This document shows, in pieces, positions 2,775 through 24,873 of a DNA stretch of 60,928 nt (position 1 is the stretch's first letter; every line of letters starts with the position of its first letter). This stretch comes from an uncultured Acidimicrobiaceae bacterium (GTDB lineage Bacteria > Actinomycetota > Acidimicrobiia > Spongiisociales > ZC4RG35), in contig CAZZIG010000039.1 in the NCBI GenBank assembly GCA_964653975.1, positions 1 to 60,928 on the forward strand, given 5' to 3'. The position numbers and the translations under genes are program-made. Under the pieces are notes generated by a model. That model had not been told where the DNA came from and made no database searches. It saw only the letters and a list, made by a program, of their open reading frames with translations.

Positions 2775-4832
2775 TCACGAGGGACGGAGCCTGAGGCGAC
2801 GGAGGAACTGGGCGTTGATCGCCACGATGACCGTCGAGGCGCTCATCAACACCGCAGCCACGGCCGGGCCGAGCACGATCCCTGCCCATGCCAGGGCCCC
2901 GGCAGCCAGCGGGAGGGCGAGGACGTTGTATCCGGCGGCCCACCCGAGGTTCTGCAACATCTTGCGATACCCGGCCTGGGAGAGTCTGAGTGCTGCGACC
3001 ACGCTACGAGGGTCGTCAGATGCCAGAACGATCCCGGCCGACTCGATGGCCACGTCAGTGCCGGCGCCGATAGCGATGCCCACATCAGCCTGGGCCAGGG
3101 CCGGTGCGTCGTTGACCCCGTCCCCCACCATCGCCACTTTCAGACCCCGACCTTGTAGATCGGCGACTTTGGAGTGCTTGTCCTCGGGCAGCACCTCGGC
3201 CAGCACCTGGTCGATGTCCAGATCGCGACCTACGGCCTCCGCGACCTGATGGGCATCCCCTGTGATCATGGCGACATCGAGCCCGAGCCGATGGAGCTCG
3301 TCGATGGCCTGGCGGGACTCGGGCCGCACCTTGTCTTCCAACGACACTGCCCCCTTCACCTCGCCATCGACCACGACGTAGAGGACGGCTGCGCCTCGCT
3401 CGCTCCAGGGGCGGGCCGCCTCTTCCACTTCTGCGGGTAGCTGCATCTCCCGTTCACGAAGAAGGGCCGGTCCTCCAACCGCGACCCTCGAGCCGGAGAC
3501 GGTGGCCTCCACCCCGCGACCGCTCATCGCCTTGAAGCTCTCTGCGGCCGGGATCCGACCTCGGGCCGCGGCTGCGGCGACGATGGCTCGTGCCAGCGGG
3601 TGCTCGGAGTCAGACTCGACAGCTGCCGCCAATGCGAGCAGTCCATCGGTGTCTTCGTCGATCGACATGACATCGATGACGTCGTGGGCCCCTTCGGTGA
3701 GGGTCCCCGTCTTGTCGAACAGGACGATGTCCACGTTCCTCATCTCCTCGAGGGCGAGGCGATCCTTGACGAGGATCCCGTTTCTCGCCGCCATACTGGT
3801 CGAGATCGATACCACCAGCGGGATGGCGAGTCCCAATGCGTGGGGACACGCGATGACGAGCACCGCCACGGTCCTCACCACGGCCTGGTCGGGTTGGGCG
3901 AGGGTGAGCCAGACGATCGCTGTGATCACAGCCGCCGCCACCGCCACGTAGAACAACAACGCCGCGGCCCGGTCGGCCAGCACCTGGGCCCGGGAGCGCG
4001 ACTGCTGAGCTTGGGCCACGAGACGTTGGATCCCGGCCAGGGCGGTGTCCTCGCCCACGGCCTCGACACGGACCCGGATCGAGTTGTCGGTGGCGACCGT
4101 GCCGGCGACCACCTGATCGCCCGGTGCCTTGGGCACCGGTCTGGACTCCCCGGTGACCATCGACTCGTCGACTTCCACTTCACCCTCGACGATCGATCCA
4201 TCGGCGGGAACCCGCGCCCCCGGACGCACCAGGACCACGTCATCGACCGTCAGGTCTGCGATGGGGACACTCTCGATGCCTCCTTCGCCCACCCGTTCCG
4301 CTTCGTCGGGGAGCAACTCGGCAAGGGCGGCGAGAGCGCCTCGAGCCTGGCCGATGGCACGCATCTCCATCCAGTGGCCGAGGAGCATGATGGTGATCAG
4401 TGCGGCCAGCTCCCACCAGAATTCGAGATCGAACCACCCCGCCGTGGTGGCGAGGGAGGCGGCAAAGGCGACCGTGATCGCCATCCCGATGAGCAGCATC
4501 ATCCCCGGTGCACGGTCCCGAGCCTCCTGGATCGCGCCCTTCAGGAAAGGCGACCCCCCATAGACGAAGATGAAGGTCCCCAACACCGGGGCGACCCACT
4601 GGGACCCGGGGAAGGACGGGGCCGTGTACCCGAACCAGTCCTGGATCATCTCCGAGTAGAAGACGACGGGGAGGGTCAGCGCAAGTGACAGCCAGAACCT
4701 GTCGCGGAACATGGCAACGCTGTGCCCGGCGTGTTTGTCGTGCCCCTGGTGTCGGTGCCCCTCGTCGTGCGCTGCGGACGGCTTGGAGTCGTGTTCCTCT
4801 TCGGTGGAGGTGTGATGTGTGTGATGGTCCAT
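2775..4832 (-). CDS. copB: Copper-translocating P1B-type ATPase, CopB-like with His-rich N-terminus
   Basis: CPHALGL, DKTGTLT, TGES, HPLA, MVGDGVNDAPAL, TM motifs YN and MSAS; N-terminus MDHHTHH...HDKHAGH. Confidence 0.92.
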   Translation of the reverse strand: MDHHTHHTSTEEEHDSKPSAAHDEGHRHQGHDKHAGHSVAMFRDRFWLSLALTLPVVFYSEMIQDWFGYTAPSFPGSQWVAPVLGTFIFVYGGSPFLKGAIQEARDRAPGMMLLIGMAITVAFAASLATTAGWFDLEFWWELAALITIMLLGHWMEMRAIGQARGALAALAELLPDEAERVGEGGIESVPIADLTVDDVVLVRPGARVPADGSIVEGEVEVDESMVTGESRPVPKAPGDQVVAGTVATDNSIRVRVEAVGEDTALAGIQRLVAQAQQSRSRAQVLADRAAALLFYVAVAAAVITAIVWLTLAQPDQAVVRTVAVLVIACPHALGLAIPLVVSISTSMAARNGILVKDRLALEEMRNVDIVLFDKTGTLTEGAHDVIDVMSIDEDTDGLLALAAAVESDSEHPLARAIVAAAAARGRIPAAESFKAMSGRGVEATVSGSRVAVGGPALLREREMQLPAEVEEAARPWSERGAAVLYVVVDGEVKGAVSLEDKVRPESRQAIDELHRLGLDVAMITGDAHQVAEAVGRDLDIDQVLAEVLPEDKHSKVADLQGRGLKVAMVGDGVNDAPALAQADVGIAIGAGTDVAIESAGIVLASDDPRSVVAALRLSQAGYRKMLQNLGWAAGYNVLALPLAAGALAWAGIVLGPAVAAVLMSASTVIVAINAQFLRRLRLRPS

Positions 4833-4846
4833 GATGTCTCTCCCGG

Positions 4847-5131
4847 CTAAGACCGAACGAGCCGCTCGATGGCCCGGGTGGCTTCGGTGACCATCTCGTC
4901 GGCGCTCTGACCGTCCCCGGCCACAGCCGCCTCCCGAACACAGTGACGAACGTGTTCGTCGAGCAACCCGACAGCGACCCCTTTCAGTGCCGCAGAGACT
5001 GCATTGACCTGGGTCAACACATCGATGCAGTACTTGTCTTCGTCGATCATCCGCTGCAGACCCCTCACCTGCCCTTCGATGCGAGCGAGCCGCCTCACGT
5101 AGTCGTCCTTGTTGATCTCATATCCTCGCAT
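4847..5131 (-). CDS. csoR: CsoR family metal-sensing repressor
   Basis: RRLARIEGQVRGLQRMI..YCIDVLTQ...LLDEHVRHCV; conserved Cys/His/Cys ligands. Confidence 0.95.
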   Translation of the reverse strand: MRGYEINKDDYVRRLARIEGQVRGLQRMIDEDKYCIDVLTQVNAVSAALKGVAVGLLDEHVRHCVREAAVAGDGQSADEMVTEATRAIERLVRS

Positions 5132-5139
5132 GGCTCTCC

Positions 5140-5184
5140 TATACCTTAGGGGGGTATAGTATAATGGGATTGAGTCCTCGTCAA
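5140..5184 (-). promoter_or_regulatory. SigA-type promoter overlapping a CsoR operator
   Basis: Minus strand reads TTGACG (5184-5179), N17, TACTAT (5161-5156). Inverted repeat TATACC-TTAGGGG-GGTATA (5140-5158) with a G-tract matches the CsoR operator pattern. RBS AGGAG at 5140-5136. Confidence 0.85.
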
Positions 5185-5187
5185 CCC

Positions 5188-5811
5188 CTAGCCACAGTCC
5201 CTCGTGCTCGAGCCCGCGAAGGTGGGCACCGGTCGCTGCTCAGCCTCGATCGCGTCAGCGGCGGGACCGTTGGTGGCGATGTCGCCGATGAGCCAGTCCA
5301 TCTCCCTGATCTCACGTCTCTGCGCCTCAGCGATCGCAACCGCCAACTCACACACCCTCACGTCTTCGATCTCGGCGCGCTCGCTGGTGAGGATCGCTAT
5401 CGAGTGATGAGGGATCATGGCCCGCATGTAGGACCCCTCCTGGACCGTGGTCTGGCTGCGAACCAGCCACGTGGCCAACGCGAAGACGACGATCGCTCCG
5501 ACGACGATGGCCAGATTCGCCCTCCGGTCCCGGTACATCCCGAGCATGAAGCCGAGCATGACGACCGCCATGCTCGAGCCCATGAGCAATGTCATGAACA
5601 ACCGGGTCTCACTCCAGCGGACATGGTCCAACTCGAAGGTGTTGAGATAGGTGACGGCGTACATCACGACCATTGCGGTGACGATCATGCCGAGAAAGCG
5701 CCAATAGGGGTTGGCAGGGCTCTCCTCGTGGCTTCCAGCCTCCGGTGTCGTCCTCTCGTCTTTGCCATCACCTCTGCTCATCGGGTCTCCACGCTCGTGA
5801 TGATGGATCAC
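5188..5811 (-). CDS. DUF305 family protein with N-terminal TM helices (copper-cluster associated)
   Basis: RAMIPHHSIAILTS double-His motif, EAQRREIREM; three hydrophobic N-terminal segments. Start may be the ATG at 5781. Confidence 0.85.
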   Translation of the reverse strand: MIHHHERGDPMSRGDGKDERTTPEAGSHEESPANPYWRFLGMIVTAMVVMYAVTYLNTFELDHVRWSETRLFMTLLMGSSMAVVMLGFMLGMYRDRRANLAIVVGAIVVFALATWLVRSQTTVQEGSYMRAMIPHHSIAILTSERAEIEDVRVCELAVAIAEAQRREIREMDWLIGDIATNGPAADAIEAEQRPVPTFAGSSTRDCG

Positions 5812-10793: not shown

Positions 10794-10835
10794 GCATGGG
10801 CGGCAGTCACCAGCGTCCGGCAACCGGGCCCCAAT

Positions 10836-10851
10836 AGGGACCTTCGGCCCT
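10836..10851. promoter_or_regulatory. DosR/DevR/OsdR-like binding box
   Basis: AGGGACCTTCGGCCCT matches 13/16 to the recalled Streptomyces OsdR consensus AGGGCCGATCGGCCCT and keeps the GGGAC..WW.G.CCC core of the mycobacterial DosR box; ends 62 bp before the nxrA-like start. Confidence 0.6.
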
Positions 10852-10857
10852 TTTCCT

Positions 10858-10877
10858 ACTAACGAACGTTCGTTAGT
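10858..10877. promoter_or_regulatory. Perfect 20-bp palindrome, probable repressor operator (TetR-like)
   Basis: ACTAACGAACGTTCGTTAGT is its own reverse complement. It is AT-rich in a GC-rich background and lies between the DosR-like box and the RBS. Confidence 0.7.
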
Positions 10878-10913
10878 TAATCCCCCAACAGACAGACTCA
10901 GGTAGGAACCGGA

Positions 10914-13900
10914 TTGCCCCAGGTCAGCAGACGTCAGTTCATCAAGATCGCAGGTGGTGCCGGTCTGGCCGCGATCTCGGGGGTGCTCGACCTCGAACTG
11001 TTGGCTCTCGAAGCCTTCCCCGGTGTCGACAACCCCCTCCTCACCTACCCCAACCGGGGTTGGGAGCAGATCTACAGAGACCAATATGCATATGACAGCA
11101 GTTTCACGGTCATCTGTGCCCCCAACGACACCCACATGTGTCGGCTCCGGGCCTTCTCCCGCAACGGGATAGTCACCCGTCTCGAACAGAACTACGACGG
11201 GGCCAACTATGCGGATCCCCAGGGCAATACCTCGACCGCACATTGGAACCCCCGGGGCTGTCTCAAGGGGTTCACGCTGCATCGACGGGTCTACGGGCCC
11301 TACCGACTGCGCGCCCCGATGGTCAGAAGCGGCTGGAAGGAGTGGGCCGACGACGGATTTCCCTCCCTCTCGGACGATCCGGACCTGAGAGCCCGGTATC
11401 GGTTCGACGACCGCGGGAACGACACGTTCATCCGGCTCACCTGGGACGAGGTCGACGACTATGCGGCGCGGGGATTGGAGGCGATCGCCCGCACCTACTC
11501 GGGAGACGATGGCCGACGCCGGCTCATCGATGAGGACGGCTATGAGCCCGAGATGCTCGAGTTCTGGGAGGGGTCGGGTGTCCGGACGATGAAGTTCGGG
11601 TCGTCGCTTCCGGTCCACGGTGTGGCGGGCAAGTTCGGGTTGTTCCGGTTCGCCAACATGCTGGCACTCCTCGACGCAGACGTACGCGGCGTGGGACCCG
11701 ATGAGGCGGTCGGCGCCAGAGACTGGTCGGAGTACACGTGGCGGGGAGATCAGGCGCCGGGGTTCCCGTTCGTGCACGGGCTCCAGACCTCGGAAGTCGA
11801 CTTCAACGACCTCCGCAAGAGCCGTCTCCTCATCCAGGTCGGCAAGAACCTGGTCGAGAACAAGATGCCGGAGAGCCATTGGTTCCAGGAGATCATCGAG
11901 CGTGGGGGCAAGATCGTCTCCATCGTCCCCGAGTACGGGCCCCAGTCGTCCAAGTCCGACTACTGGATCCCGGTGCGGGCCGGTCTCTCCGACACCGCCA
12001 TCTTTCTCTATCTGGCCAAGGAGCTCATCGATCGCGACCTCTACGACCTCGAGTTCGTGAAACGATTCACCGACCTGCCGCTCCTCATTCGTCTCGACGA
12101 CCTGACCCGCGTGCACGCCGGGGAGGTCTTCGCCGACCACGGGCCACTGCTCGATCCCGAGGGCCCCAGTTTCACCCTCCACGCCATGACCCCCGAGCAA
12201 TACGAGCAGATCGGCGACAGGGTGGTCAGAGACACCTCGGGTCAACTGCGCGCCATCAGCCGCGAGCACGTCGGAGATCGGCTGGCCGAGGCCGGAGTCG
12301 ATCCGGAGGTCGACTGGCGGGGAACGATCACCCTGGCCGACGGGTCGGAGGTCGAGGTGGCCACGGCGCTCAACCTCTACCGGGAGCATTTGGCCGACTA
12401 CGACGTCGACACGGTCGCCGACATCACCGGATCGCCCAAAGAGCTGTTGGAACAGCTCCTCGATGACGTCGCCACGATCCGGCCGATGTCGATTCAGGTC
12501 GGGGAGGGTGTCAACCACTACTTCCACGCCACCCTCCACAACCGGGCCACCTACATGGTCTCGATGCTCACCGGTCAGATCGGCATCCCCGGCTCGGGAG
12601 TCAGCACCTGGGCCGGCAACTACAAAGGGGGCATCTTCCATGCCGCCCCCTGGTTCGGGCCGGGCGTCGGCGGCTACGTGAACGAGGATCCGTTCAACCC
12701 GCTCCTGTCAGAGACGGACGCCTACGACTTCGACAACATCCACCACTACATCCATGGAGAGGAGACCTCCTACTGGGGCTACGGAGACCGCCCGCTGGTG
12801 GTGGACACTCCTACCGAAGGGCGGAAGGTGTTCACCGGGCGGACCCACATGCCCACCCCGACCAAGGTGCTCTGGTACAACAACGCCAACCTGATCAACC
12901 AGGCCAAGTGGGCCTATCACCTGATCAAGCACACCAACCCCAAGATCGACATGATCGTCGACCAGCAGATCGAGTGGACCGGGTCGGCAGAGTTCGCCGA
13001 CATCGTCCTACCGGCCAACAGCTGGCTGGAGTTCGAGACGCTCGAGATGGGCGGGTCGTGCTCCAACCCGTTCCTCCAACTCTGGAAAGGAGGCATCAGC
13101 CCCCTCTACGACAGCCGAGACGACGTGGCCATCTTCGCCGGTGTGGCGAGGGCCCTGGCCGGGCTCACCGGCGAGCCACGATTCGCCGACTACTTCAAGT
13201 TCGCCAGTGAAGGCCGACCGGAGGTGTATCTCGACCGGGTCCTGAAAGGCTCGTTCACCACCGAGGGCTACACCGTCGACGACATCATGTCGGGCAAATA
13301 CGGTGAGCCGGGCGGGGCACTGATGCAATACCGCACCTACCCCCGCATCCCGTTCTGGGAGCAGGTCAACGACAGTCTCCCGTTCTACACCGACACCGGC
13401 AGGCTGAACGCCTACTGCGACCTCCCCGAGGCCATCGAATATGGGGAGAATCTGATCGTCCATCGTGAGGCGGTTGAGGCCACTCCCTACCTCCCCAACG
13501 TCATCGTCTCCACCAGCCCCTGGATCCGGCCAAACGACTACGGCATCGACCCGGCCGACCTCGACGCCGACCGCCGCCAGGTGCGCAACATCAAGATGTC
13601 CTGGCCCGAGGTCCGCCGCACCGTCAACCCGCTGTTCGAGGAGGGATACCGCTTCCTCTGCCTCACTCCCAAGTCGCGGCACTCGGTTCACTCCTCCTGG
13701 GCGGTCACCGACTGGCACTGGATCTGGAACTCCAACTTCGGCGACCCCCACCGAACCGAGACCCGCATGCCGGGCGTGGGTGATGCCCAGCTCCACATGA
13801 GCCCCACCGATGCCCGCGGTCTCGGATTGGAGAGCGGCGACTGGGTATGGATCGATGCCAATCCCGCAGACCGCCCCTACGTCGGAGCCTCACCCGAAGA

Positions 13901-14378
13901 CCCCTTCTACGAGTCGGCCCGCCTCATGGCGAGGGTGACGTACAACCATTCGTACCCGCCCGGGGTCACCATGATCAAACACGCCTTTTACATGGCGACA
14001 CCGCGGACGGTTCGAGCACAGGAGAGCCGCGCCGACGGGCGCGCCCTGGCCGACACCGGCTACCAGTCGAGCTTCCGTCACGGCAGCCAGCAGTCGCTCA
14101 CCAGAGGCTGGGCACCGCCAATGCACCAGACCGACAGCCTCTTTCACAAGCGAGCCGCGGGGATGGGCTTCATCTTCGGCTTCGACGTCGACAACCACGC
14201 CATCAACACCGTCCCGAAGGAGACTCTGGTCCGGATCACCCTGGCGGAGCCGGGTGGTCTGGGAGGAAGAGGAGTCTGGTCGGGCGCCACGACGGGTCAC
14301 AGCCCGGGCGGCGAGTCGAAGTTCATGCAGCGTTACCTGGCCGGCCAGGTCGTCACCATCAAGGGAGCCGGCACATGA
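10914..14378 (+). CDS. nxrA: Tat-exported type II DMSO-reductase-family molybdoenzyme alpha subunit, anammox/Nitrospira NxrA-like (NXR/periplasmic NAR clade)
   Basis: TTG start; Tat motif VSRRQFI; FS0 motif C68-x3-D72-x3-C76...C116 (CAPNDTHMC...WNPRGCLKGFTLHRRVYGPYRL); Mo-ligand Asp in TWRGDQ (D279); GKNLVENKMPE, GEGVNHYFH, WAGNYK, TPKSRHSVHSSW. These match NxrA blocks recalled from Kuenenia/Nitrospira. The gene symbol marks family membership; the substrate is unproven. Confidence 0.88.
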   Translation: MPQVSRRQFIKIAGGAGLAAISGVLDLELLALEAFPGVDNPLLTYPNRGWEQIYRDQYAYDSSFTVICAPNDTHMCRLRAFSRNGIVTRLEQNYDGANYADPQGNTSTAHWNPRGCLKGFTLHRRVYGPYRLRAPMVRSGWKEWADDGFPSLSDDPDLRARYRFDDRGNDTFIRLTWDEVDDYAARGLEAIARTYSGDDGRRRLIDEDGYEPEMLEFWEGSGVRTMKFGSSLPVHGVAGKFGLFRFANMLALLDADVRGVGPDEAVGARDWSEYTWRGDQAPGFPFVHGLQTSEVDFNDLRKSRLLIQVGKNLVENKMPESHWFQEIIERGGKIVSIVPEYGPQSSKSDYWIPVRAGLSDTAIFLYLAKELIDRDLYDLEFVKRFTDLPLLIRLDDLTRVHAGEVFADHGPLLDPEGPSFTLHAMTPEQYEQIGDRVVRDTSGQLRAISREHVGDRLAEAGVDPEVDWRGTITLADGSEVEVATALNLYREHLADYDVDTVADITGSPKELLEQLLDDVATIRPMSIQVGEGVNHYFHATLHNRATYMVSMLTGQIGIPGSGVSTWAGNYKGGIFHAAPWFGPGVGGYVNEDPFNPLLSETDAYDFDNIHHYIHGEETSYWGYGDRPLVVDTPTEGRKVFTGRTHMPTPTKVLWYNNANLINQAKWAYHLIKHTNPKIDMIVDQQIEWTGSAEFADIVLPANSWLEFETLEMGGSCSNPFLQLWKGGISPLYDSRDDVAIFAGVARALAGLTGEPRFADYFKFASEGRPEVYLDRVLKGSFTTEGYTVDDIMSGKYGEPGGALMQYRTYPRIPFWEQVNDSLPFYTDTGRLNAYCDLPEAIEYGENLIVHREAVEATPYLPNVIVSTSPWIRPNDYGIDPADLDADRRQVRNIKMSWPEVRRTVNPLFEEGYRFLCLTPKSRHSVHSSWAVTDWHWIWNSNFGDPHRTETRMPGVGDAQLHMSPTDARGLGLESGDWVWIDANPADRPYVGASPEDPFYESARLMARVTYNHSYPPGVTMIKHAFYMATPRTVRAQESRADGRALADTGYQSSFRHGSQQSLTRGWAPPMHQTDSLFHKRAAGMGFIFGFDVDNHAINTVPKETLVRITLAEPGGLGGRGVWSGATTGHSPGGESKFMQRYLAGQVVTIKGAGT

Positions 14379-14626
14379 AGGCCGTCGAGTCCGGCGACCC
14401 GTTCGAGCTGGTCGGGGTGAGACGTCAGGTGGAGCCCAACCTCGAGACCGACACCGAGACCGCCCGTTGTCTCATCGAGGAGTACGCACTCGCCGGTTTC
14501 GCCGCCAACGAGATCCTGGACCTGTTCGCTTCGCCCGCCTATGGGATGCCAAACGCGATCTACCGGCGACGTGGGGCCGAGTTCGTGACCGGTCTCGTCG
14601 CGGGGGTCTTCGGAGGAGTGCGATGA
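14375..14626 (+). CDS. Small conserved-looking hypothetical protein (83 aa) between alpha and beta
   Basis: ATGA overlaps at both ends. [15 protein letters not shown]...[39 protein letters not shown]. It is the 3' part of track ORF 13847..14626. Confidence 0.8.
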
Positions 14627-15849
14627 CCACTGTGTACAACTGGCAGTTGGGGCGGGACATGGAATACCGCTTCGAGGGCGGCGGTGCCCGACGGCAGTTC
14701 GCCGCGGTGTTCAACATCAACCGCTGCATCGCCTGCCAGACCTGCACCATGGCCTGCCGGTCGACCTGGACCTTCTCCCCCGGGCAGGAGCTGATGTGGT
14801 GGAACAACGTCGAGACCAAGCCCTACGGCGGCTATCCCCGCCATTGGGACGTCAAGACGCTGGAGCTACTCGAGGGCGCCAACCCCGGTGGCCAGGTGTG
14901 GGACTACGGAGAACAGAGCGAAGATGCCCCCTACGGCACCTTCGAAGGCAAGACGATCTTCGAGGCCACCGACCCAGCCGAGCGCGCCGTCGGATACCTG
15001 CCGAGCGACGACGAGTGGAAAGCCCCCAATCGCTTCGAGGACCACGGGACCAAATGGTCGGCCAACGGAGCCAGTCTTCCCGAGCACGAAGGTTGGTTCT
15101 TCTATCTGGCGCGGATCTGCAATCACTGCACCTATCCGGCATGTCTCGCCGCCTGTCCCAGGAACGCCATCTACAAGCGACCGGAGGACGGGATCGTCCT
15201 CATCGACCAGGAACGATGCCGGGGATACCGCAAATGCGTCGAGGCCTGCCCCTACAAGAAGTCGATGTACCGGCCGACCACCGGGACGTCGGAGAAGTGC
15301 ATCGGGTGCTTCCCCCGCCAGGACGGCGACGACCCCCTGACCGAGGGACATCCGATGGAGGCCCGCTGCATGACAGCCTGCGTCGGCAAGATCCGAATGC
15401 AGGGGCTGGTCGATGTCGAAGCCGACGGAACCTGGACCGAAGACCCCGACCACCCCCTCTACTACCTCGTGCACGAAGAGCAGGTGGCCCTGCCCCTGTA
15501 CCCCCAATTCGGCACCCAGCCCAACATCTACTACATCCCGCCGCGCTGGGTCCCCCGCGACTATCTCCATCAGATGTTCGGCCCGGGTGTCGACCAGGCC
15601 ATCGAGCGCTACACGCGTCCCTCCCGCAGACTCCTCGCAGTCCTGCAGCTGTTCCGGGCCTCACAACAAATCATCTTCTCGTTCGACGTGGAGGAGGGGG
15701 AACAGGTGGGCGAGGTCCAGGTGGGTGGCGAGTCCTATGAGATCTTCAACGACACGGCCGTCGGATTCGACGCCGACGGACACGAGATCGTGCGCATCAG
15801 GGTCGAAGAGCCACTCCACGAGCGGCCCTTGAAGGTGAACTCGATATGA
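14623..15849 (+). CDS. nxrB: Fe-S beta subunit, NxrB/NarH-like (three 4Fe-4S plus one 3Fe-4S)
   Basis: [71 protein letters not shown]...[16 protein letters not shown]. 408 aa from the ATG at 14623. Confidence 0.93.
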
Positions 15850-16589
15850 CCCTCACAGCCAGTCGCGAGCACGATCTCATCCAGGCGACGGGCCGTTTCG
15901 GCATCTACTCCCTCCTGGCGACCGGATTCATGCTCCCGACCGAGAGTCGGCTCGAAGTCGTGGCATCGACGCTCCTCCCCGCGGTCTCCAAGCTCGACGT
16001 GGGAGTGGAGGTGGGCTCAGCGATCAAGCGTGTAGCAGAAGCGATGCCCCTCGGCGTCGGGAGCCTGCGCGGACACTTCATGGAGTTGTTCCCGCCGATT
16101 GCCTCCCAGGATGCGCCGGGATACGAGACCGGCTATCGAGGAGACGGGATCTTCCAGCAGTCGGCGATCATGGCCGACATCGCCGGCTTCTACCGGGCGC
16201 ACGGGCTTCAGTCCGGCGGCACCGAGCGGGAGCGTCCCGACCACATAACGGTGGAGCTGGAGTACATGGCCTTTGTCGCCAAGAAGGAGGCACTGGCGCT
16301 CCGCGAAGGCTCTCCGGACCACGCCGCCATCTGTCGGGACACGGCCTCCTCTTTCCTCCGCGACCACCTCGGCTGTTGGGGCCCCGCGTTCGGTCTGCGG
16401 GCACGCGCCGTCTCCTCGAGCCCCTGGTACTGGTCACTCGGTGAGTTGCTGGCACTGTGGATCGAGTGGGAGTTGGACGCCATGGGCATCGAGCCAGTGG
16501 AGGTCGTGGAGCACCCGCTGCCCCAGGAGCCCCCGGACGATGGGAGCTGTGGTCCCTGCCCGGTCCCCTCGCTCGGAGGTGGGGTATGA
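15846..16589 (+). CDS. TorD/DmsD/NarJ-family maturation chaperone
   Basis: YETGY, MADIAGFYRAHGL, ERPDHITVELEYM, FLRDHLGCW; C-terminal CGPC. Confidence 0.9.
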   Translation: MTLTASREHDLIQATGRFGIYSLLATGFMLPTESRLEVVASTLLPAVSKLDVGVEVGSAIKRVAEAMPLGVGSLRGHFMELFPPIASQDAPGYETGYRGDGIFQQSAIMADIAGFYRAHGLQSGGTERERPDHITVELEYMAFVAKKEALALREGSPDHAAICRDTASSFLRDHLGCWGPAFGLRARAVSSSPWYWSLGELLALWIEWELDAMGIEPVEVVEHPLPQEPPDDGSCGPCPVPSLGGGV

Positions 16590-17587
16590 GACTTCTCAGG
16601 TCGAAGCTCGCATTGTTCGTAGCCCTGGCTTTGATCTCCGTGCTACTGCGCGTCGCCGACGCCAACCCTGCGATGGCCCAGAACCCGTCGATCGGGGTTT
16701 GGAGCGTCGCCACGGCGCCACCGATGGACGGCTCGGCTCCCGAATGGCAGTCGATTCTGCCGGTCTTTCTGCCGACCACCTCACAGCAGGTGGCGCTGCC
16801 GATGGGAGGAGGCGCGATCGAACGTCTCGGGGTCAGGGCAGTGCATCACGACGAGCGTCTCTACGTGATGCTGGAGTGGTCGGACGGGACACTGGACGAG
16901 AGCACCGCTCTCCACGAGACGTTCACTGATGCTGCCGCCATCCAGTTCCCCGCCGAGGCGGGAGTCGAGGTACCCGCGATCTGCATGGGACAAGCAGACC
17001 AGGCGGTCAACATATGGCATTGGCGCGCCGACCAGCAGAACGACCCACCTGCTCTGTCCGAGCATGGCTACGTCGACTCCTATCCCTCCACCGATGACCT
17101 CTATTTCACGGCGCGCGCGGCAGGAAATCCCCTGGCGCGTGCCGACGGCCGCACCGGTGTGAGCAATCTCGTCGCCGGAGGTTTCGGCACACTCGAAATC
17201 GCCGACCAGGGGGGTCTCGACGGCCACGCCGTCCATGAGGGCGGTCGCTGGATGGTGGTGTTCACCAGACCCTTGGCCGCCGCGAGCGACATGCAACCCA
17301 CGATCGCCAACGGCCCCGTCGACGTCGCCTTCGCGATTTGGGACGGCAGCAAGCAAGAGCGAGACGGAATCAAGTCGGTGTCGGCGTTCACCCAGCTTCA
17401 GGTGACCCCAGAAGATCCGCCCCGGCGACCCGTGGCGGCCACCGCCGATTGGCCAGGGTACACGCCGTCCAACCCGATGCTCGTCGTCTCATATGGCTTC
17501 ATCGCATTGTTGGTTGCGGGGGCCTTGCTGATCTGGCGATACATGCGGAAAGGTGAAGGGGGCTCGGATGCCGAGAGTCCCGCATAG
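16586..17587 (+). CDS. Heme-b gamma subunit (EbdC/NxrC-like DOMON fold) with signal peptide and C-terminal TM anchor
   Basis: ATG at 16586 (ATGA overlap). Signal peptide; RLYVMLEWSD, FTDAAAIQFP, PAICMGQ (Met ligand), VNIWHWRA, W.VVFTRPL, AFAIWDGS.QERDGIKS (Lys ligand); TM MLVVSYGFIALLVAGALLIW followed by RYMRK. Confidence 0.85.
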   Translation: MRLLRSKLALFVALALISVLLRVADANPAMAQNPSIGVWSVATAPPMDGSAPEWQSILPVFLPTTSQQVALPMGGGAIERLGVRAVHHDERLYVMLEWSDGTLDESTALHETFTDAAAIQFPAEAGVEVPAICMGQADQAVNIWHWRADQQNDPPALSEHGYVDSYPSTDDLYFTARAAGNPLARADGRTGVSNLVAGGFGTLEIADQGGLDGHAVHEGGRWMVVFTRPLAAASDMQPTIANGPVDVAFAIWDGSKQERDGIKSVSAFTQLQVTPEDPPRRPVAATADWPGYTPSNPMLVVSYGFIALLVAGALLIWRYMRKGEGGSDAESPA

Positions 17588-18530
17588 CCCGGTTCCGCGG
17601 CACCTGACCGGCTGGCTCGGAGTCGTCGTCCTCGCCGAACTGGTGCTCTTGCGAACCGGCACCCGCACCCTCATCCACATCCCGGGGCTGGGTCGCTTCG
17701 ACACTTCCGTGGGGCTGCTGAGCGAGGTGGGGCGACTCGCCTACTACCTGGCAGTGGTGCTGGTCGTGGCTCTACTGGTCTACCTCGGCCACTCGATGTG
17801 GGTTAGCGGCACCATGGCGGGGAGGGCCCTCGCCGGCCTGGTTTCGGTCTTCGTCGTCACCGCGCTGCTGGGACGAGTGGGCGTGGTCACCGCCTCGACG
17901 GTTGCTTGGGTGTCGGTGGCGGTGTTGGTCGCGGTGTTGGCGATCACCTGGGGCGGGGTGCGCAGCGTGCCGGTGGCCGCCTTCGTCGCCGCCTCGGTAT
18001 CGGCTTCGTGGAGCATCCTGGGACAGGGGCTCGGGCCGGGGATCACGGGACGCACCGTGGACATCGCGGTGGTCGTCGCCGAAGGTCTGTTGCTCCTGGC
18101 ATTCGTGACCACTCCCCTCCTCGTCATCGGGAAGCTGACGACACCGGCCATGTTCGCGGGAATGGCCGCTTTCGCCCTGGTAGGCGCGGGATTCTGGGCG
18201 GGTGGCCCGACCCTCTCCATCCTGACGCTTTGGAATCTCGGAGTGCCCGGCTGGTTCTCCCCGATCGTCTACGGGCTCGCCTTCGGGGGCTTGGTGGTCG
18301 CCATATGGTCGGCCTCGACCCGCCGCCAGGTCGCGATCACCACCGGTCTCCTCCTGATGGTCGCCGGAGGGGTGGGGCCGATCAGCACCTATCAAACCGC
18401 CCTGGCCTTGACCGCGGTGACCCTCATCGGGCTGGCTGTAGACGCGCGCGACATCGACTCGGTTCCCGGAAGCGAGCAAGAGGCGTCAGACCCCTCCGAG
18501 TCGAGCAGGGACCTCCTCTCTCTCACGTGA
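17568..18530 (+). CDS. Polytopic membrane protein of unknown function, last gene of the molybdoenzyme operon
   Basis: 320 aa, almost entirely hydrophobic (about 9-10 TM segments); overlaps the gamma gene by 20 nt; no family motif recognised. Confidence 0.75.
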   Translation: MPRVPHSPVPRHLTGWLGVVVLAELVLLRTGTRTLIHIPGLGRFDTSVGLLSEVGRLAYYLAVVLVVALLVYLGHSMWVSGTMAGRALAGLVSVFVVTALLGRVGVVTASTVAWVSVAVLVAVLAITWGGVRSVPVAAFVAASVSASWSILGQGLGPGITGRTVDIAVVVAEGLLLLAFVTTPLLVIGKLTTPAMFAGMAAFALVGAGFWAGGPTLSILTLWNLGVPGWFSPIVYGLAFGGLVVAIWSASTRRQVAITTGLLLMVAGGVGPISTYQTALALTAVTLIGLAVDARDIDSVPGSEQEASDPSESSRDLLSLT

Positions 18531-18720
18531 CCGCTGTTGGCGGCACGGATCTACGCTGGGACCACTGACTTTCGACCCTGGTCCGGGTCGAACATCTGAT
18601 GGAAGCTGGAACGGTGAGCTCAACTGACGACGGAACAGAGTCTCTCGAATCGGGAGGGACGTTGGCGGTGCGCTCGGTTTCGACACCAACCACCAAGACG
18701 ACCCGGGCCGGCAGCGAATC

Positions 18721-19809
18721 GTGACCCGCACAACGGTCAGTTCCGACGATCAGGCGGTCCTTGGCCGTCTCTCCCGTCTCGACCGGTTCCTCCCGGTTTG
18801 GATCGGACTGGCCATGGCGGCCGGGCTTCTCCTCGGAACCCTGCGACCCGACCTGAACGACTGGCTGGACACGGTGGAGATCGGAAGTGTGTCACTACCC
18901 ATCGCCATTGGGCTGCTGGCGATGATGTACCCGGTGCTCGCCAAGGTCAGGTACTCCCAGATCGGCGAGATCGCCGCCGATCGCAAGCTCCTGGTCAACT
19001 CGCTGATCCTCAACTGGCTGCTCGGGCCGCTGCTCATGTTCACCCTTGCCTGGCTCATGCTGCCCGACCTACCCGAGTACCGCACCGGTCTCATCATCAT
19101 CGGGCTCGCCCGATGCATCGCGATGGTGCTCATCTGGAACGACATCGCATGTGGGGACCGGGAAGCGGCAGCTGTGCTCGTGGCGATCAACTCGGTGTTT
19201 CAGATCGTGGCCTACTCATTGCTTGGGTACTTCTACCTCGAGCTACTGCCAGACTGGCTGGGGCTGGACACCGCGAGTCTCGACGTGTCGATGTGGGAGA
19301 TCGGAAGGATCGTCCTCATCTTCTTGGGTATCCCCCTGGTGGCCGGGTACCTGACCCGTCGTTGGGGGGAACGGTCCAGAGGCGTCGAGTGGTACGAGAC
19401 CAGGTTCATCCCCAAGATCGCTCCCTGGGCGCTCTACGGTCTGCTCTTCACAGTTGTCATCCTCTTCGCCCTCCAGGGCGAGACCATTACCAGCCAGCCG
19501 CTCGATGTCGTGCGCATCGCTCTCCCGCTCCTGGCGTACTTCCTCCTGATGTGGGGGCTCGCCTTTGCACTGGGGCTGAGACTCCGGCTGTCGTATCCGA
19601 AGAACACTGCGATGAGCTTCACCGCGGCGAGCAACAACTTCGAGCTGGCGATCGCCGTCGCCATCGGGGTGTTTGGCGTCACCTCGGGTGAGGCCCTTGC
19701 CGGAGTCGTCGGACCGCTGATCGAGGTACCAGTGCTCGTGGGGCTCGTCTACGTCGCCCTCTGGGCCCGCCGTCGCTTCTACCCCAGCCAAGACCCGGAG
19801 GGACCATGA
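18721..19809 (+). CDS. acr3: Acr3 family arsenite efflux transporter
   Basis: LSRLDRFLPVWI, GLLAMMYPVLAKV, GLARCIAMV, SNNFELAIAVAI, VGPLIEVPVL. Confidence 0.95.
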   Translation: MTRTTVSSDDQAVLGRLSRLDRFLPVWIGLAMAAGLLLGTLRPDLNDWLDTVEIGSVSLPIAIGLLAMMYPVLAKVRYSQIGEIAADRKLLVNSLILNWLLGPLLMFTLAWLMLPDLPEYRTGLIIIGLARCIAMVLIWNDIACGDREAAAVLVAINSVFQIVAYSLLGYFYLELLPDWLGLDTASLDVSMWEIGRIVLIFLGIPLVAGYLTRRWGERSRGVEWYETRFIPKIAPWALYGLLFTVVILFALQGETITSQPLDVVRIALPLLAYFLLMWGLAFALGLRLRLSYPKNTAMSFTAASNNFELAIAVAIGVFGVTSGEALAGVVGPLIEVPVLVGLVYVALWARRRFYPSQDPEGP

Positions 19810-21020: not shown

Positions 21021-21554
21021 TCAACTCTTCGGTGGCGGGAGCAACGCGACGACACCGGCACTGGCGAGGAGGAGGGCTCCAAATGTGACGGCGGTCCAGT
21101 TGACCTCGTCGCCGAGTTGCCGTCCCGGTTCGGTGACGGTCAAGGATCGAACCTCCAGGTAGGACTCTCCCTGCCGTGCCGGGTCGTGGTATCTCCAAAT
21201 TCCGATGACACGGACCACTGGACCGCGATTCCAGTATCCACCGGGGTGGTCGAGGCTCTTGGCCAGCTCTGCAGGCATCCTCACCGCGATACCCACATTG
21301 GCCCCGACGGGCGACCCTCCTTCCCTCAGTGGCTGGTCGACATAGGCGTCGCCGTTGAGTTGAGTCCACATCGATCCGTCGTCCCGGAACCCGTAGTCCC
21401 CCACCAGCTCTCCCTCAACGGTGATTTCCTCCCCGGCGAGTTCGGTGCCCAGCTCCAAGATCTCGGACACCTGCAACTCCTCGGCCGCCGACGCGGGGAC
21501 GGTGATGAAGAGGAACACAGTGGCCAGGCCGATGACTCGGAACAGTTTTCTCAT
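21021..21554 (-). CDS. Secreted OB-fold-like protein with C-terminal TM anchor (Trk operon accessory)
   Basis: Real start is the ATG at 21554 (ATGA overlap with the trkH stop). Signal peptide MRKLFRVIGLATVFLFITVPASA; EITVEGELVGD...VVRVIGIWRYH..GESYLEV; terminal TM helix. It is the 3' part of track ORF 21021..22244. Confidence 0.75.
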   Translation of the reverse strand: MRKLFRVIGLATVFLFITVPASAAEELQVSEILELGTELAGEEITVEGELVGDYGFRDDGSMWTQLNGDAYVDQPLREGGSPVGANVGIAVRMPAELAKSLDHPGGYWNRGPVVRVIGIWRYHDPARQGESYLEVRSLTVTEPGRQLGDEVNWTAVTFGALLLASAGVVALLPPPKS

Positions 21555-23047
21555 TTGCCCCTCACCCATGCATATACGAACCCCAGCAGCGAGAAGACCG
21601 CGACGAACTCGAGCCGGCCGGCCCACATCTGGACCATGTAGACCAGTTCGAGGAGGATCGGCATCGATGGGTCGGTCACACCCACGGAGAGCCCGACATT
21701 GGCGGAGGCGCTGACCGACTCGAACAGAGAATCTTGGAGGGGAATCCCATAGGCCAGGCCGATGCCCGCTCCAAGAAGGTAGAGAGCCACATAGAGAAGA
21801 GAGATGATCATCACCGATTGAATGAGTGCGGGGGTGAGATGTTTCCGTCCGGACTGGTGGTATGCGGTGCCGACGAGGGCATGCTCGGGGAGAAGGACCT
21901 GTCGGATCTGATTGACGACAGATTTGATGGTGAGGCCGATCCTCAGTGACTTGACCCCACCTGCGGTTGAGGAGCCCATGCCGCCGAGTGCCATCGCGAT
22001 CGCCATGCCCCCAAAGGCGAGTCCGCCCCAGTTCGCCAACTCGGCCGAAGGAACGGTGGAGAAGCCAGTGCCCGTGTGTGCGGAGAGAATCTGGAAGAAG
22101 CCCTGACGGGTCAGGCCGGCAACATCGGAGAAGAGACCGGTGGCAGCCAGACCCAGGAGCGTCAGGACCATCGTGAACCCAAAGGTGGAGAGGATGGTGC
22201 GGGTCTCCAGGTTGGCGAACACACGGCGTCGTGGACCCCGCCACATCGCATAGTGGAGTCCGAAGGACATCGCCCCGGCGACCATGAGCAGACCGGTCAC
22301 GCCTTCGAAGATCGCCGAGTGGTAGTAGCCGATACTGGTCGACTGGGGGGAGAAGCCGCCGGTGTCGAATCCGGCGAAGAAGATCATCAGCCCGTGGAAG
22401 ATCGAGCGGTGGAGTTCAAACCCGAGGACCAACCAGCCGACGAGTCCGAGGGCGGTGACACCGAAGATGAGATGAACCACCGACACGGCCCAGATGAATC
22501 GCGCCGTCGAGGTGACCGATGGAAGGATTCGCTCGTCTCTGGCTTCACCGAAGTACAAAGTGATTCCGCCCGTCCCGGCGAAGATGGTGAGTGCCGCCAG
22601 GATGATGCCCTGACCGCCGAGGAACTGGACGAAGTGTCGCCAGAAGTTGAGCGAAGAGGCGAGGTGGTCGACGTCGCTGAGCAGAGAGAGGCCGGTTGTG
22701 GTCAAACCGGACATGGCATCGAAGAAGGCGTCGAGAGGTCGCCCGAAGTGACCGGAGAGGAGGAGTGGTATCGCTCCGACTATCGGCACGATCAGCCAGG
22801 TCAGGGCCACGACGACCATTCCGTGACTCCAGTCGAGCTCCGACTCCTCGGGGGCGAGCCTCGCCCCCATCACGCCGAGCAAGGCGAAGACCCCGGTCAT
22901 GATGAGGAACGATCCGAACGGGTTCCATTCACGGGCGATCCCCGCCCAGGTCAGCGGGAGGAGACTGGCCGCGGCGAGCACGAGAAAGATACGCCCGATG
23001 TAGAAGCCGATGACTCTGAAATCTTCCCCGACCGGCCGGATCAGCAT
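21551..23047 (-). CDS. trkH: TrkH family K+ uptake membrane subunit
   Basis: Four pore loops (SGLTTTGLS, FDTGGFS, HTGTGFS, SANVGLS), GGMGSSTAGGVKSLR, GRLE. Confidence 0.93.
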   Translation of the reverse strand: MLIRPVGEDFRVIGFYIGRIFLVLAAASLLPLTWAGIAREWNPFGSFLIMTGVFALLGVMGARLAPEESELDWSHGMVVVALTWLIVPIVGAIPLLLSGHFGRPLDAFFDAMSGLTTTGLSLLSDVDHLASSLNFWRHFVQFLGGQGIILAALTIFAGTGGITLYFGEARDERILPSVTSTARFIWAVSVVHLIFGVTALGLVGWLVLGFELHRSIFHGLMIFFAGFDTGGFSPQSTSIGYYHSAIFEGVTGLLMVAGAMSFGLHYAMWRGPRRRVFANLETRTILSTFGFTMVLTLLGLAATGLFSDVAGLTRQGFFQILSAHTGTGFSTVPSAELANWGGLAFGGMAIAMALGGMGSSTAGGVKSLRIGLTIKSVVNQIRQVLLPEHALVGTAYHQSGRKHLTPALIQSVMIISLLYVALYLLGAGIGLAYGIPLQDSLFESVSASANVGLSVGVTDPSMPILLELVYMVQMWAGRLEFVAVFSLLGFVYAWVRGK

Positions 23048-23048
23048 C

Positions 23049-23189
23049 TCAGAGAATCGCCAGGATCAGCGCTGACGTGAGCCATGCTACGGCGGCTAGG
23101 GCCAGGACGATCAGAGCCTCGACGACGAACATCGCCAACCCTCCGGCCAGCCCGTCGAAGCTCAACCACTTGCGGTCTCGGTCAGTCAT
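23049..23189 (-). CDS. 46-aa single-TM membrane peptide
   Basis: MTDRDRKWLSFDGLAGGLAMFVVEALIVLALAAVAWLTSALILAIL*. ATGA overlap with the trkA stop; ends 1 nt before the trkH ATG. Below the ORF-track cutoff. Confidence 0.7.
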   Translation of the reverse strand: MTDRDRKWLSFDGLAGGLAMFVVEALIVLALAAVAWLTSALILAIL

Positions 23190-23848
23190 TTCTTACGGCC
23201 GTTCTTCTGTCCCAGGGCGGCGCGGACCTCGTTTTCGAGTTCAACGCTGCTCACCGCAGTCACCTGGTCGCCAGGATGGAGAATCGTCATGGCCGTCGGC
23301 ACTCTGACCTCGTCACCCCTTACATTCGCTACCAGGAGCGCTCCCTTCGGCAGTCTGAGCTCGGCAACGGGTCGTGGTTCGAAGTTCGGGGAAATGTCGA
23401 TTTCGTAGACAGAGATCTCGCCTCTTCCGAGCAGAGTGACGTGCCGGAACTCGGGCACTTCCACTTCTCGTGAGATGAGTGTGGCCATGACATCGGTCAC
23501 CGCCACTACCGGTATGTCGAGGGCTTCAAAGGTGGGACGATTGAGCGGATTGTTCAGCCGCGCCAGAACCTGGCTTGCCCCCAACGTCGAGGCCAACTGA
23601 CAAGCCACGAGATTGACCTCGTCGAGTCCGGTAACCGCCAACACCCAATCGGCCCGCCCGGCGTCGGCCGCCTTGAGCAATCGAATGTCGGTACCGTCAC
23701 CCTCGAGTACCAGGACCTTGGATTCGTCGGTGAGCGACTCTGCGTGACCATGTGCTTCCTCGATGACGGTGACGACATGTCCGCTCTTGTGGAGCTCACG
23801 TGCCAGATACGACCCGACCTTGCCTCCTCCGATCAAGACGACTCTCAC
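23186..23848 (-). CDS. trkA: TrkA family RCK/NAD-binding subunit (copy 2)
   Basis: MRVVLIGGGKVG, GDGTD, AVTGLDEVNL; TrkA_C domain. Confidence 0.92.
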   Translation of the reverse strand: MRVVLIGGGKVGSYLARELHKSGHVVTVIEEAHGHAESLTDESKVLVLEGDGTDIRLLKAADAGRADWVLAVTGLDEVNLVACQLASTLGASQVLARLNNPLNRPTFEALDIPVVAVTDVMATLISREVEVPEFRHVTLLGRGEISVYEIDISPNFEPRPVAELRLPKGALLVANVRGDEVRVPTAMTILHPGDQVTAVSSVELENEVRAALGQKNGRKK

Positions 23849-24507
23849 CGACGATCGTCCTTGACTGCGAGATAGCGGCGGATCTTCTTCCGAGCTCCAC
23901 TGCGAGCTGCGGCCACGACCAGATCGCCTAGGGCGAGTGCAAAATCGTCGTCCGGTATCAACGTCCGGTGACCCCGGTGGACGGCGGCCACTCGCAAGTC
24001 ATCTCGAACCTCGAGATCAGAGACAGGTAGCCCGGCGCCCTCGGGTCCAATGACCATCTCGACTATCTCGACATCGCCCCCGGAGAACGTCACGTGGTAG
24101 CTGAACTCCTCTCTGACGATTTGTTCGTGGATGACTTTCGAGGTGAGCTTCGCTCCGGGCACGAACTGGACGTCCAGCGCCCGGTAGGCGTCTTCGCGGG
24201 CGGGGTCGTCGAGACGAGCGATCGTCTTCGGCACTCCGAAAACCCGCTTCGCCACCTGGACTGCCATCGCGTTGGCGTTGTCGGAGTCAGTCGCCGCCAC
24301 GAAGGCGTCCGCGAACTCGATCCCGGCTTCGCGAAGCAGCCGGACGTCGTATCCGAGGCCCTCGTGGGTCGTTCCGTTGAATGTCGAGCCGAGACGATCG
24401 AAGACCCCAGGCCGATTATCGATCACCGAGACGTCATGGCCTTCCTCGGACAAGGTCAGGGCAAGGTCACTTCCCACCCGCCCACAACCGGCGATGACGA
24501 TCCTCAT
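23845..24507 (-). CDS. trkA: TrkA family RCK/NAD-binding subunit (copy 1)
   Basis: MRIVIAGCGRVG, AATDSDNAN, IARLDDP; TrkA_C domain. Confidence 0.92.
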   Translation of the reverse strand: MRIVIAGCGRVGSDLALTLSEEGHDVSVIDNRPGVFDRLGSTFNGTTHEGLGYDVRLLREAGIEFADAFVAATDSDNANAMAVQVAKRVFGVPKTIARLDDPAREDAYRALDVQFVPGAKLTSKVIHEQIVREEFSYHVTFSGGDVEIVEMVIGPEGAGLPVSDLEVRDDLRVAAVHRGHRTLIPDDDFALALGDLVVAAARSGARKKIRRYLAVKDDRR

Positions 24508-24719
24508 CGGCGTCTTCCTCTGATTCGTGTCTTCGTGACCATCTCATCGACCGTCGACTCCTCGACGAGCGTGAGCGGGAGTTGATCGGGAGTGTCAGGC
24601 CGCCATTCGTTCCGTAGAAACACATGAGCAATATCTGATCCTCCGGGAAGACGAGCAGGTCCCAGGTATTCGTGGAGGATCCCCTCGACTCGATAGCGGA
24701 GGCCGATGAACAAATTCAT
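24504..24719 (-). CDS. Hypothetical 71-aa protein leading the Trk operon
   Basis: Its stop overlaps the trkA start (ATGA); no family recognised. Confidence 0.5.
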   Translation of the reverse strand: MNLFIGLRYRVEGILHEYLGPARLPGGSDIAHVFLRNEWRPDTPDQLPLTLVEESTVDEMVTKTRIRGRRR

Positions 24720-24848: not shown

Positions 24849-24873
24849 GGCCCATGACAGGTGAGCGAACACG

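Follow-up and report, generated by a model that had tools for sequence, protein, structure and literature searches.

What does an enzyme resembling the nitrite oxidoreductases (NXR) of anammox bacteria do in an actinobacterium? The question is raised by contig CAZZIG010000039.1 (assembly GCA_964653975.1), of which positions 1 to 60,928, read on the forward strand, were analysed here and are referred to as the window. An earlier note, made from the letters of the DNA, had described an operon for a molybdenum enzyme of the Kuenenia and Nitrospira type between positions 10914 and 18530. On the evidence of its sequence, this operon encodes a complete enzyme of the type II dimethyl sulfoxide (DMSO) reductase family that belongs to the periplasmic NXR lineage, and the complex is predicted to face outward. 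As for its role, the explanation that we favour, with about as much doubt as conviction, is an outward-facing nitrate reductase induced by hypoxia or nitric oxide (NO).

The operon and its catalytic core

The region 10914-18530 holds six overlapping reading frames on the plus strand, which form a real operon in the order alpha, S, beta, delta, gamma and M (A-S-B-D-C-M):

10914-14378, plus strand: alpha, NxrA-like catalytic subunit with molybdenum (Mo) bis(molybdopterin guanine dinucleotide), 1154 aa, TTG start
14375-14626, plus strand: S, small protein, 83 aa
14623-15849, plus strand: beta, NxrB-like subunit, 408 aa
15846-16589, plus strand: delta, assembly chaperone of the NarJ/TorD family, 247 aa
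16586-17587, plus strand: gamma, NxrC/EbdC-like haem b subunit, 333 aa
17568-18530, plus strand: M, polytopic membrane protein, 320 aa

The tight coupling described earlier was found in every detail, with ATGA overlaps at 14375, 14623, 15846 and 16586 and an overlap of 20 nt between gamma and M (17568-17587). The start of gamma was reassigned to the ATG at 16586, which lies behind GGAGG, and a longer open reading frame (ORF) with a GTG start at 16457 was discarded. The GC content at third codon positions is high in all six frames, as it is across the rest of the contig, and its values for the operon genes (0.82-0.86) equal those of the flanking genes. A chance origin of the six-gene block is excluded, because the same block recurs in ~38 independent genomes. 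Scanning the operon for sigma-70 promoters and terminators returned nothing above chance, and the Rfam search found no riboswitch, such as one for the molybdenum cofactor, its only match being a tRNA-Pro outside the operon.

Alpha begins with MPQVSRRQFIK, in which SRRQFIK (residues 5-11; 10926-10946) is the motif for twin-arginine translocation (Tat). The ligands of its FS0 iron-sulfur cluster read C68-APN-D72-THM-C76 (11115-11141), with C116 (11259-11261) as the fourth Cys; the Tat signal and the C-x3-D-x3-C form of FS0 had both been read correctly in the earlier note. The substrate Asn is Asn71, and the Mo-ligand Asp279 is encoded at 11748-11750. Pfam and NCBIfam assigned alpha the domains PF00384 (molybdopterin oxidoreductase) and TAT_signal, while its best NCBIfam match, TIGR03479, reached 286 bits against a cut-off of 985 and is below threshold. 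Models named "DMSO reductase type II" came out on top for the operon proteins, yet under their curated cut-offs. Beta has four Fe-S cluster motifs, including CIGC, matches Fer4_11 and TIGR03478, and carries no signal peptide. Delta matched PF02613 (Nitrate_red_del; E 3e-16) and TIGR03482, "DMSO reductase family type II enzyme chaperone" (E 1.5e-19).

The likeness to Kuenenia NxrA and NxrB described in the earlier note proved to be homology over the full length of the proteins. For this comparison the Kuenenia references were rebuilt from HMMER alignments, and their lengths and landmark residues were checked. Alpha scored 1524 bits against NxrA (structure 7B04) with 55.9% identity over 1149 columns, and other structures gave 173 bits (PcrA), 120 bits (EbdA) and 105 bits (NarG). 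Beta scored 579 bits against NxrB, at 59.1% identity, and 224 bits against PcrB. Equivalents of the Kuenenia NxrA residues C67, N70, D71, C75, C115 and D275 are all kept in alpha, and every catalytic and haem ligand named in the Kuenenia structure is retained in alpha or gamma. Published values for identity to Kuenenia NxrA are ~60% for Nitrospira/Nitrospina, 40% for Nitrotoga/Hydrogenobaculum, and ~20% for Nitrobacter-type NXR, nitrate reductases (NAR) and EbdA (PMC8387239); measured against these benchmarks, 55.9% places alpha on a par with members of the periplasmic NXR group. The molybdopterin domain, FS0, the Asp ligand and the beta/gamma/delta set that mark the type II DMSO reductase family were thus all found, as were the Tat signal, the FS0 of three Cys and one Asp, the Asn and the Met/Lys-ligated haem b of the periplasmic NXR lineage.

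Distribution, phylogeny and genomic setting

To place the operon among its relatives, 80 species-level genome loci were retrieved from GTDB contigs, with one genome per species. The closest alphas, at 72-95% identity, come nearly all from metagenome-assembled genomes (MAGs) of Acidimicrobiia obtained in many independent studies, and the next-closest (55-64%) from Gammaproteobacteria, Acidobacteriota, Chloroflexota and Planctomycetota. The whole A-S-B-D-C-M order was present in ~38 of the 80 loci, nearly all of them labelled Acidimicrobiia. Far from being a one-off, the operon thus occurs regularly in a large group of Acidimicrobiia.

A neighbour-joining rather than a maximum-likelihood tree was built from 1130 columns with 100 bootstraps; it comprised the alphas of 65 loci, the window, Kuenenia and plasmid-borne outgroups taken from annotated plasmid records, and it contained no Nitrospira or Nitrospina sequences. 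The window's alpha falls in a clade of 30 sequences, nearly all Acidimicrobiia, with 100% support, and this clade is nested in a radiation, also supported at 100%, that holds Kuenenia as well. Successive outer branches are those of Natronococcus (38% identity), Halobaculum (35%), Haloferax pNarG (29%) and E. coli NarG (25%). The earlier note had considered that alpha might branch with NarG or with the Ebd/Ser/Clr enzymes, or that the contig might come from a planctomycete or from a nitrite oxidiser already known. Neither turned out to be the case: the tree and the bit scores place alpha with Kuenenia, and its closest relatives are Acidimicrobiia MAGs.

The same note had presented the operon as an unusual actinobacterial system. 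The NXR-lineage enzyme and its Acidimicrobiia relatives bear this out; its rarity does not hold, as the operon occurs in dozens of Acidimicrobiia species. Related sequences are plentiful, with more than 2000 protein clusters matching alpha at E <= 1e-50, some of which carry the name "nitrate reductase / nitrite oxidoreductase, alpha subunit" at JGI. In the literature, nxrAB are mentioned in MAGs of the Acidimicrobiia UBA5794 (PMC13335318), periplasmic nxr-like genes whose direction was left undecided have been described in MAGs of heterotrophs (PMC9306079), and a similar clade is known from Planctomycetota (PMC10732223).

Two bins from other taxa, one Kiloniellaceae (L024) and one gammaproteobacterial (L027), carry the full Acidimicrobiia-type operon including M, with alphas at 72-76% identity; both branch within the Acidimicrobiia clade, and their binning is probably wrong. 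There is also a second clade of Actinomycetota (L034, L040, L042, L044, L049 and L057) with alphas 58-63% identical to that of the window. S is present in it, gamma is tethered in 4 of the 5 cases tested, and most of its contigs end before the position of M.

The nucleotide similarity to the nearest locus (L001) is 88% and spans 10832-18533 only, with nothing aligning outside. The edges of this similarity are only a few bases away from the promoter box described below and from the stop codon of M, and the flanks differ even from those of the locus with a 95%-identical alpha. No repeats or mobility genes were seen at the edges of the block. The six genes and their promoter thus behave like a discrete movable block, found in different genomic places in related genomes. 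When the ORFs flanking the 80 loci were clustered, regulators were the only recurrent neighbours.

Membrane attachment, small protein S and upstream control

Gamma has a Sec-type signal and matches PF09459 (EB_dh; E 4.5e-32) and TIGR03477. By alignment, its haem ligands Met134 (16985-16987) and Lys263 (17372-17374) correspond to Met155 and Lys305 of Kuenenia NxrC. A membrane anchor lies at its C-terminus (residues 298-317; 17477-17536). Such a C-terminal hydrophobic helix was found in all 30 gammas from Acidimicrobiia and all 7 from Chloroflexota, in 4 of 5 from other Actinomycetota, and in 1 of 16 from diderm phyla. The Planctomycetota and Acidobacteriota loci are built differently: the gamma-like gene is found upstream of alpha and encodes a longer product of 540-720 aa that contains two CxxCH motifs (haem b together with dihaem c; for example L055, L059, L061, L062, L066, L076 and L077), with multihaem cytochromes, Rrf2 regulators and hemerythrin nearby. 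ORFs with CxxCH within 10 kb of the operon amounted to 33 of 503 in loci of diderm phyla and to 4 of 637 in Acidimicrobiia loci, three of these four being antisense artefacts. The loci that lack cytochromes c are therefore the ones where the tethered gamma and M appear instead.

M has about 10 membrane helices and a conserved motif, ELVLLRTGTRTLIHIPGLGR, at 17637-17696. Its AlphaFold2 (AF2) model has a mean predicted local distance difference test score (pLDDT) of 91.5 and a predicted template modelling (pTM) score of 0.88. Profile searches of Pfam, NCBIfam and PDB gave no match for M, and the best Foldseek hit in the PDB (E 0.14, TM about 0.2) amounts to no matching fold. Every one of its 123 detectable homologues is labelled "hypothetical". 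Among the polar residues, E24, R29, T32, R33, R56, E172, W222, S273 and Q276 are invariant and H37 is nearly so; judged by the list of helices, the charges and the positive-inside rule, most of the invariant ones would lie in loops and at helix ends on the outer side. A NarI-like dihaem cytochrome b was excluded for M because it has a single conserved His, and a relationship of M or S to NarI, NrfD/PsrC or NapD was rejected after Foldseek and PDB profile searches returned no such relatives.

M is present in every locus of the Acidimicrobiia clade that is complete that far. A hydrophobic ORF of ~330 aa that follows gamma in six Chloroflexota loci (L036, L038, L041, L045, L051 and L052) is a distant homologue of it (hhalign probability 98.5%, E 3e-15), and these operons are likewise without cytochrome c partners. 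No M was found in the loci of Planctomycetota, Acidobacteriota or Gammaproteobacteria, so that among the retrieved loci the family is confined to the NXR-type operons of Acidimicrobiia and Chloroflexota.

The small protein S consists of a disordered N-terminus with DPFELVG (conserved as D-P-[FM]-E-L) and a four-helix domain (AF2 pLDDT 85). It has no signal peptide, found no match in Pfam, NCBIfam or PDB, and gave an empty Foldseek result. S lies between alpha and beta in at least five phyla, with homologues at this position in loci of Acidimicrobiia, Chloroflexota, Planctomycetota, Acidobacteriota and Gammaproteobacteria, and it is absent from the outgroup operons of Halobaculum and Natronococcus. 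The family comprises 109 clusters at 50% identity, all of them unnamed metagenome proteins. We hypothesize that S is a cytoplasmic factor, probably for the maturation or escort of alpha.

Two palindromes stand in front of the operon:

10836-10851, plus strand: palindromic box of DevR/DosR/OsdR type, AGGGACCTTCGGCCCT, 77 nt before the start codon of alpha
10859-10876, no strand assigned: 18-bp palindrome without mismatches, CTAACGAACGTTCGTTAG, located after the box and ahead of the alpha start codon

The box is identical at 15 of 16 positions to AGGGACCTTCGGCCCC, the predicted OsdR site of narG2 in S. coelicolor. It agrees with the OsdR consensus AGGGCCGATCGGCCCT and is similar to that of DevR, TTSGGGACTWWAGTCCCSAA (PMC2275270); its form, GGGAC-N4-GNCCC, is that of promoters in the DevR/DosR/OsdR regulon. 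In Streptomyces coelicolor, AGGGACCTTCGGCCCC is listed for both narG2 and SCO0167; OsdR, from whose study the consensus AGGGCCGATCGGCCCT is taken, is the functional orthologue of DevR (DosR), the regulator of the response to hypoxia and NO in mycobacteria, and nar2 transcription drops in an osdR mutant (PMC5069765). The palindrome recurs upstream of the operon in related loci with the consensus TAGGGACTTTCGGCCCTA. Its core GGGACNNNNGNCCC, with at most one mismatch and within 300 nt upstream of alpha, was found in 30 of 35 loci of the Acidimicrobiia clade against a background of 0.13 expected per 300 nt (binomial 3e-22), and in most of these 30 it lies 50-135 nt from the start codon. One locus of the second Actinomycetota clade (L034) has two perfect GGGAC-N4-GTCCC sites upstream. 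The core of the 18-bp palindrome, ACGAACGTTCGT, occurs at the same place in L001, L002, L005, L013, L014 and L056, and this palindrome may be a second operator.

The regulators found next to related operons are of several kinds. A GAF-HisKA_3 histidine kinase and a NarL/LuxR-type regulator flank the operon in L075, and a divergent regulator of the ArsR/HTH_20 type adjoins it in at least seven loci. In the Chloroflexota loci L038, L041 and L052 it is preceded by a NarX-like PilJ-HAMP-GAF sensor kinase with the motif INLAGRQRMLTQK, and a NarL-type regulator was called beside the operon in L041 and L052. Planctomycetota loci have Rrf2-type regulators and hemerythrin.

The scanned genes, which cover most of the window, include neither narI nor narK, in line with what the earlier note had said. 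The ABC transporter upstream of the operon was considered as a molybdate or nitrate system and rejected, its ATPase being of the UgpC/MalK sugar type and the transporter not conserved beside the operon. Likewise, a link between the operon and the ACR3 arsenite pump downstream (18721-19809) was rejected, since this gene adjoins the operon in 0 of the 80 related loci. Just outside the block, at 18556-18583 and ~140 nt upstream of the ACR3 gene, lies a degenerate copy of the box, ACTGACTTTCGACCCT. Elsewhere in the window, a copper-handling cluster on the minus strand (2775-5811) encodes a P-type ATPase (2775-4832), a metal-sensing repressor of the CsoR type (4847-5131) and a DUF305 protein (5188-5811), and a potassium cluster (21551-28147) contains TrkH, two TrkA, the sensor kinase KdpD and KdpE, with no kdpABC visible nearby. 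The lowest GC content of the contig (0.594) is found at 31273-34643, where the ORFs have no Pfam match; this segment extends as far as a gene for tRNA-Pro(CGG) on the minus strand (34567-34643) and may be an element integrated at the tRNA.

Direction of catalysis and comparison with known systems

If the enzyme is a nitrate reductase induced by hypoxia or NO, it could work as follows. Alpha would receive its Mo cofactor and Asp-ligated FS0 in the cytoplasm, helped by the NarJ/TorD-type chaperone and possibly by S, and would leave the cytoplasm through the Tat system, taking beta along as a passenger. Gamma would be exported by the Sec route, carry one Met/Lys-ligated haem b and be tethered by its C-terminal helix to the outer face of the cytoplasmic membrane, where alpha and beta would dock on it. 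M, translationally coupled to gamma, would take the place of the cytochrome c partners of the diderm versions and link or dock the complex to the membrane; it may also provide a menaquinol site without cofactor on the outer face, as PsrC/NrfD subunits do. External nitrate would be reduced to nitrite outside the cell, so that no NarK would be needed. A DevR/OsdR-like response regulator acting on the box at 10836-10851 would turn the operon on at low oxygen or in the presence of NO. The earlier note had already read the system as extracytoplasmic, acting as a nitrate reductase, an NXR or something new, which agrees with the predicted outward orientation; an extracytoplasmic nitrate reductase of NXR type is nonetheless a concept already known.

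The direction leans to nitrate reduction because of the type of the regulator site, the missing accessory carriers, the uphill transfer of electrons to menaquinone, the precedents and the reversibility of the Kuenenia enzyme. In known nitrite oxidisers with a periplasmic NXR, mono- and dihaem cytochromes c, a haem c NxrC, cupredoxins and a bd-like oxidase are conserved together with NXR (PMC3578206). No gene for a cytochrome c, cupredoxin or bd-like oxidase was found among the scanned genes of the window, and none recurs within 10 kb in the 38 related loci; judged on this local context, the accessory set of a nitrite oxidiser is missing. The Kuenenia enzyme catalyses both directions (PMC8387239), and enzymes of the nitrate reducers Thermogutta and Ca. 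Methanoperedens lie in the same clade by a published tree (PMC10732223, PMC5673643).

Several points weigh against hypoxia- or NO-induced nitrate reduction. Some of the relatives come from sand filters and soils, which are oxic nitrifying habitats. To our knowledge, there is no sequence marker that fixes the direction of catalysis, and the Met/Lys-ligated haem b is expected to be of high potential, like those of cytochrome-c-linked enzymes, which would suit nitrite oxidation equally. Control by DevR/OsdR is putative, being suggested by the similarity of a motif; in the window taken by itself the match does not exceed chance, with 2.7 such sites expected when one mismatch is allowed, and no regulator of the DevR/DevS type was found among its genes. 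To see in M a membrane link or a quinol site is a guess, as it has no recognisable quinone-site signature or structural relative. Finally, the assignment of the window to Acidimicrobiia rests on the relatives of the operon, the flanks not being common to them.

The operon could instead encode a true nitrite oxidoreductase, which would oxidize nitrite on the outer face and pass the high-potential electrons by way of the haem b of gamma on to a terminal oxidase, either for supplementary energy (mixotrophy) or for the detoxification of nitrite. We take this alternative seriously while considering it rather unlikely. M has no predicted redox cofactor site, and by established redox potentials the transfer of electrons from nitrite to menaquinone is strongly uphill. 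Cytochromes c, cupredoxins and a bd-like oxidase are wanting both in the operon and in its neighborhoods (cf. PMC3578206), and the box is of the hypoxia/NO type, which in Streptomyces and Mycobacterium drives genes for nitrate reductase (PMC5069765, PMC2275270). What speaks for nitrite oxidation is the position of alpha inside the periplasmic NXR radiation with Kuenenia, at an identity of 56% that nears the ~60% between Kuenenia and Nitrospira/Nitrospina (PMC8387239), together with an outward orientation and a Met/Lys haem b as in bona fide NXR. Moreover, nitrite is produced in the soils, sand filters and sediments from which related MAGs were recovered, RuBisCO occurs in some Acidimicrobiia (PMC8528921), and other authors are inclined to "Nxr" for this clade in Planctomycetota (PMC10732223). 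A bolder proposal, which we hold to be unlikely, is that the Acidimicrobiia and Chloroflexota that carry the operon are unrecognised nitrite oxidisers or reversible nitrite/nitrate "redox buffers", with M as a new subunit that wires NXR without cytochrome c into a monoderm chain and S as a universal NXR maturation factor.

That the substrate is another one altogether (chlorate, perchlorate, selenate, an arsenic species or a hydrocarbon) seems improbable, even if the layout of alpha, beta, delta and an EB_dh gamma is common to Ser, Clr, Pcr, Ddh and Ebd and an ACR3 arsenite exporter lies directly downstream in the window. The scores of PcrA and EbdA are an order of magnitude under that of NxrA, the Asn, the Mo-ligand Asp and the FS0 ligands are as in NXR, with Ile in place of the Asn in EbdA (PMC8387239), and the Chloroflexota homologues have NarX-like nitrate/nitrite sensors beside them; the pump, as noted above, does not accompany the operon elsewhere. 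It is more improbable still that the operon is a recently transferred passenger without an established role, or that the contig is a mis-assigned piece of a known nitrite oxidiser or planctomycete. The sharp edges of the block at 10832 and 18533 and the dissimilar flanks of the locus with a 95%-identical alpha would fit such an origin. The six frames are, however, intact and translationally coupled, their third-position GC is that of the flanking genes, and no close planctomycete or Nitrospira sequence was found; ~38 loci keep the operon at 68-95% alpha identity, which argues for long vertical maintenance under purifying selection.

The interconversion of nitrate and nitrite governs whether nitrogen is retained or lost in soils, sediments and water treatment. 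Marker-gene surveys score every NXR-type gene as "nitrite oxidation", and the clade described here is common in Acidimicrobiia, which abound in soils, sediments and sand filters. Should the enzyme be a nitrate reductase induced by hypoxia, such surveys would have mis-scored many of their nxrA and nxrB hits, and a large pool of nitrate reducers without narG or napA would be hidden; should it oxidize nitrite, Actinomycetota would be a new phylum of nitrifiers. In which direction NXR-like enzymes work in non-nitrifiers is a recurrent question, on which M, S and the DevR/OsdR-type box provide new handles.

Among known systems, the NXR-ABC of Kuenenia (7B04) and the NXR of Nitrospira/Nitrospina are alike in the Tat signal, FS0, the Asn, the Mo Asp, the Met/Lys haem b, the TorD-like chaperone and an active site on the outside (PMC8387239). 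Compared with the Kuenenia and Nitrospira systems, the window is without NXR-T and without mono- and dihaem cytochromes c, cupredoxins and a bd-like oxidase nearby (PMC3578206), whereas it has a C-terminally tethered gamma, an additional 10-helix M and an operator of the DevR/OsdR type, all in an actinobacterial host of monoderm type and in a 100%-supported clade of its own. Closest to the role proposed here are the Nar of Thermogutta terrifontis and the NarGH of Ca. Methanoperedens, which belong to the NXR clade by a published tree and function in the respiration of nitrate (PMC10732223, PMC5673643). In Thermogutta, genes for complex III adjoin nar (PMC5673643), while the window's operon has no bc-type complex and M instead.

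The pNar of Haloferax mediterranei is likewise an outward-facing, Tat-exported enzyme of an organism without an outer membrane, with an EB_dh-related haem subunit and a TorD chaperone. Its alpha is, however, 29% identical and branches apart, and it has its own Rieske protein NarB and cytochrome b NarC and is without S or M; no Rieske or cytochrome b gene is present in the window's operon. The NarGHJI of E. coli and of actinobacteria shares the superfamily, the Fe-S chain and a NarJ-type chaperone at 25% identity. Its cytoplasmic active site, H-x3-C-x3-C motif, dihaem NarI and need for NarK are not features of the window's operon, where the Tat signal and the C-x3-D-x3-C form of FS0 were found and the genes scanned included no NarI or NarK. 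As to regulation, Nar2 of Streptomyces and the narK2X genes of Mycobacterium belong to the DevR/OsdR hypoxia regulon (PMC5069765). Subunits of the PsrC/NrfD/DmsC type offer a functional analogy to M, as polytopic quinone links without haem, and no sequence or fold similarity was detected between them. Databases and surveys already contain the gene family; what sets the operon of the window apart is the tethered gamma and M in monoderm style, the conserved S and the DevR/OsdR-type control, and it is through M, S and the box that the question of its role becomes testable.

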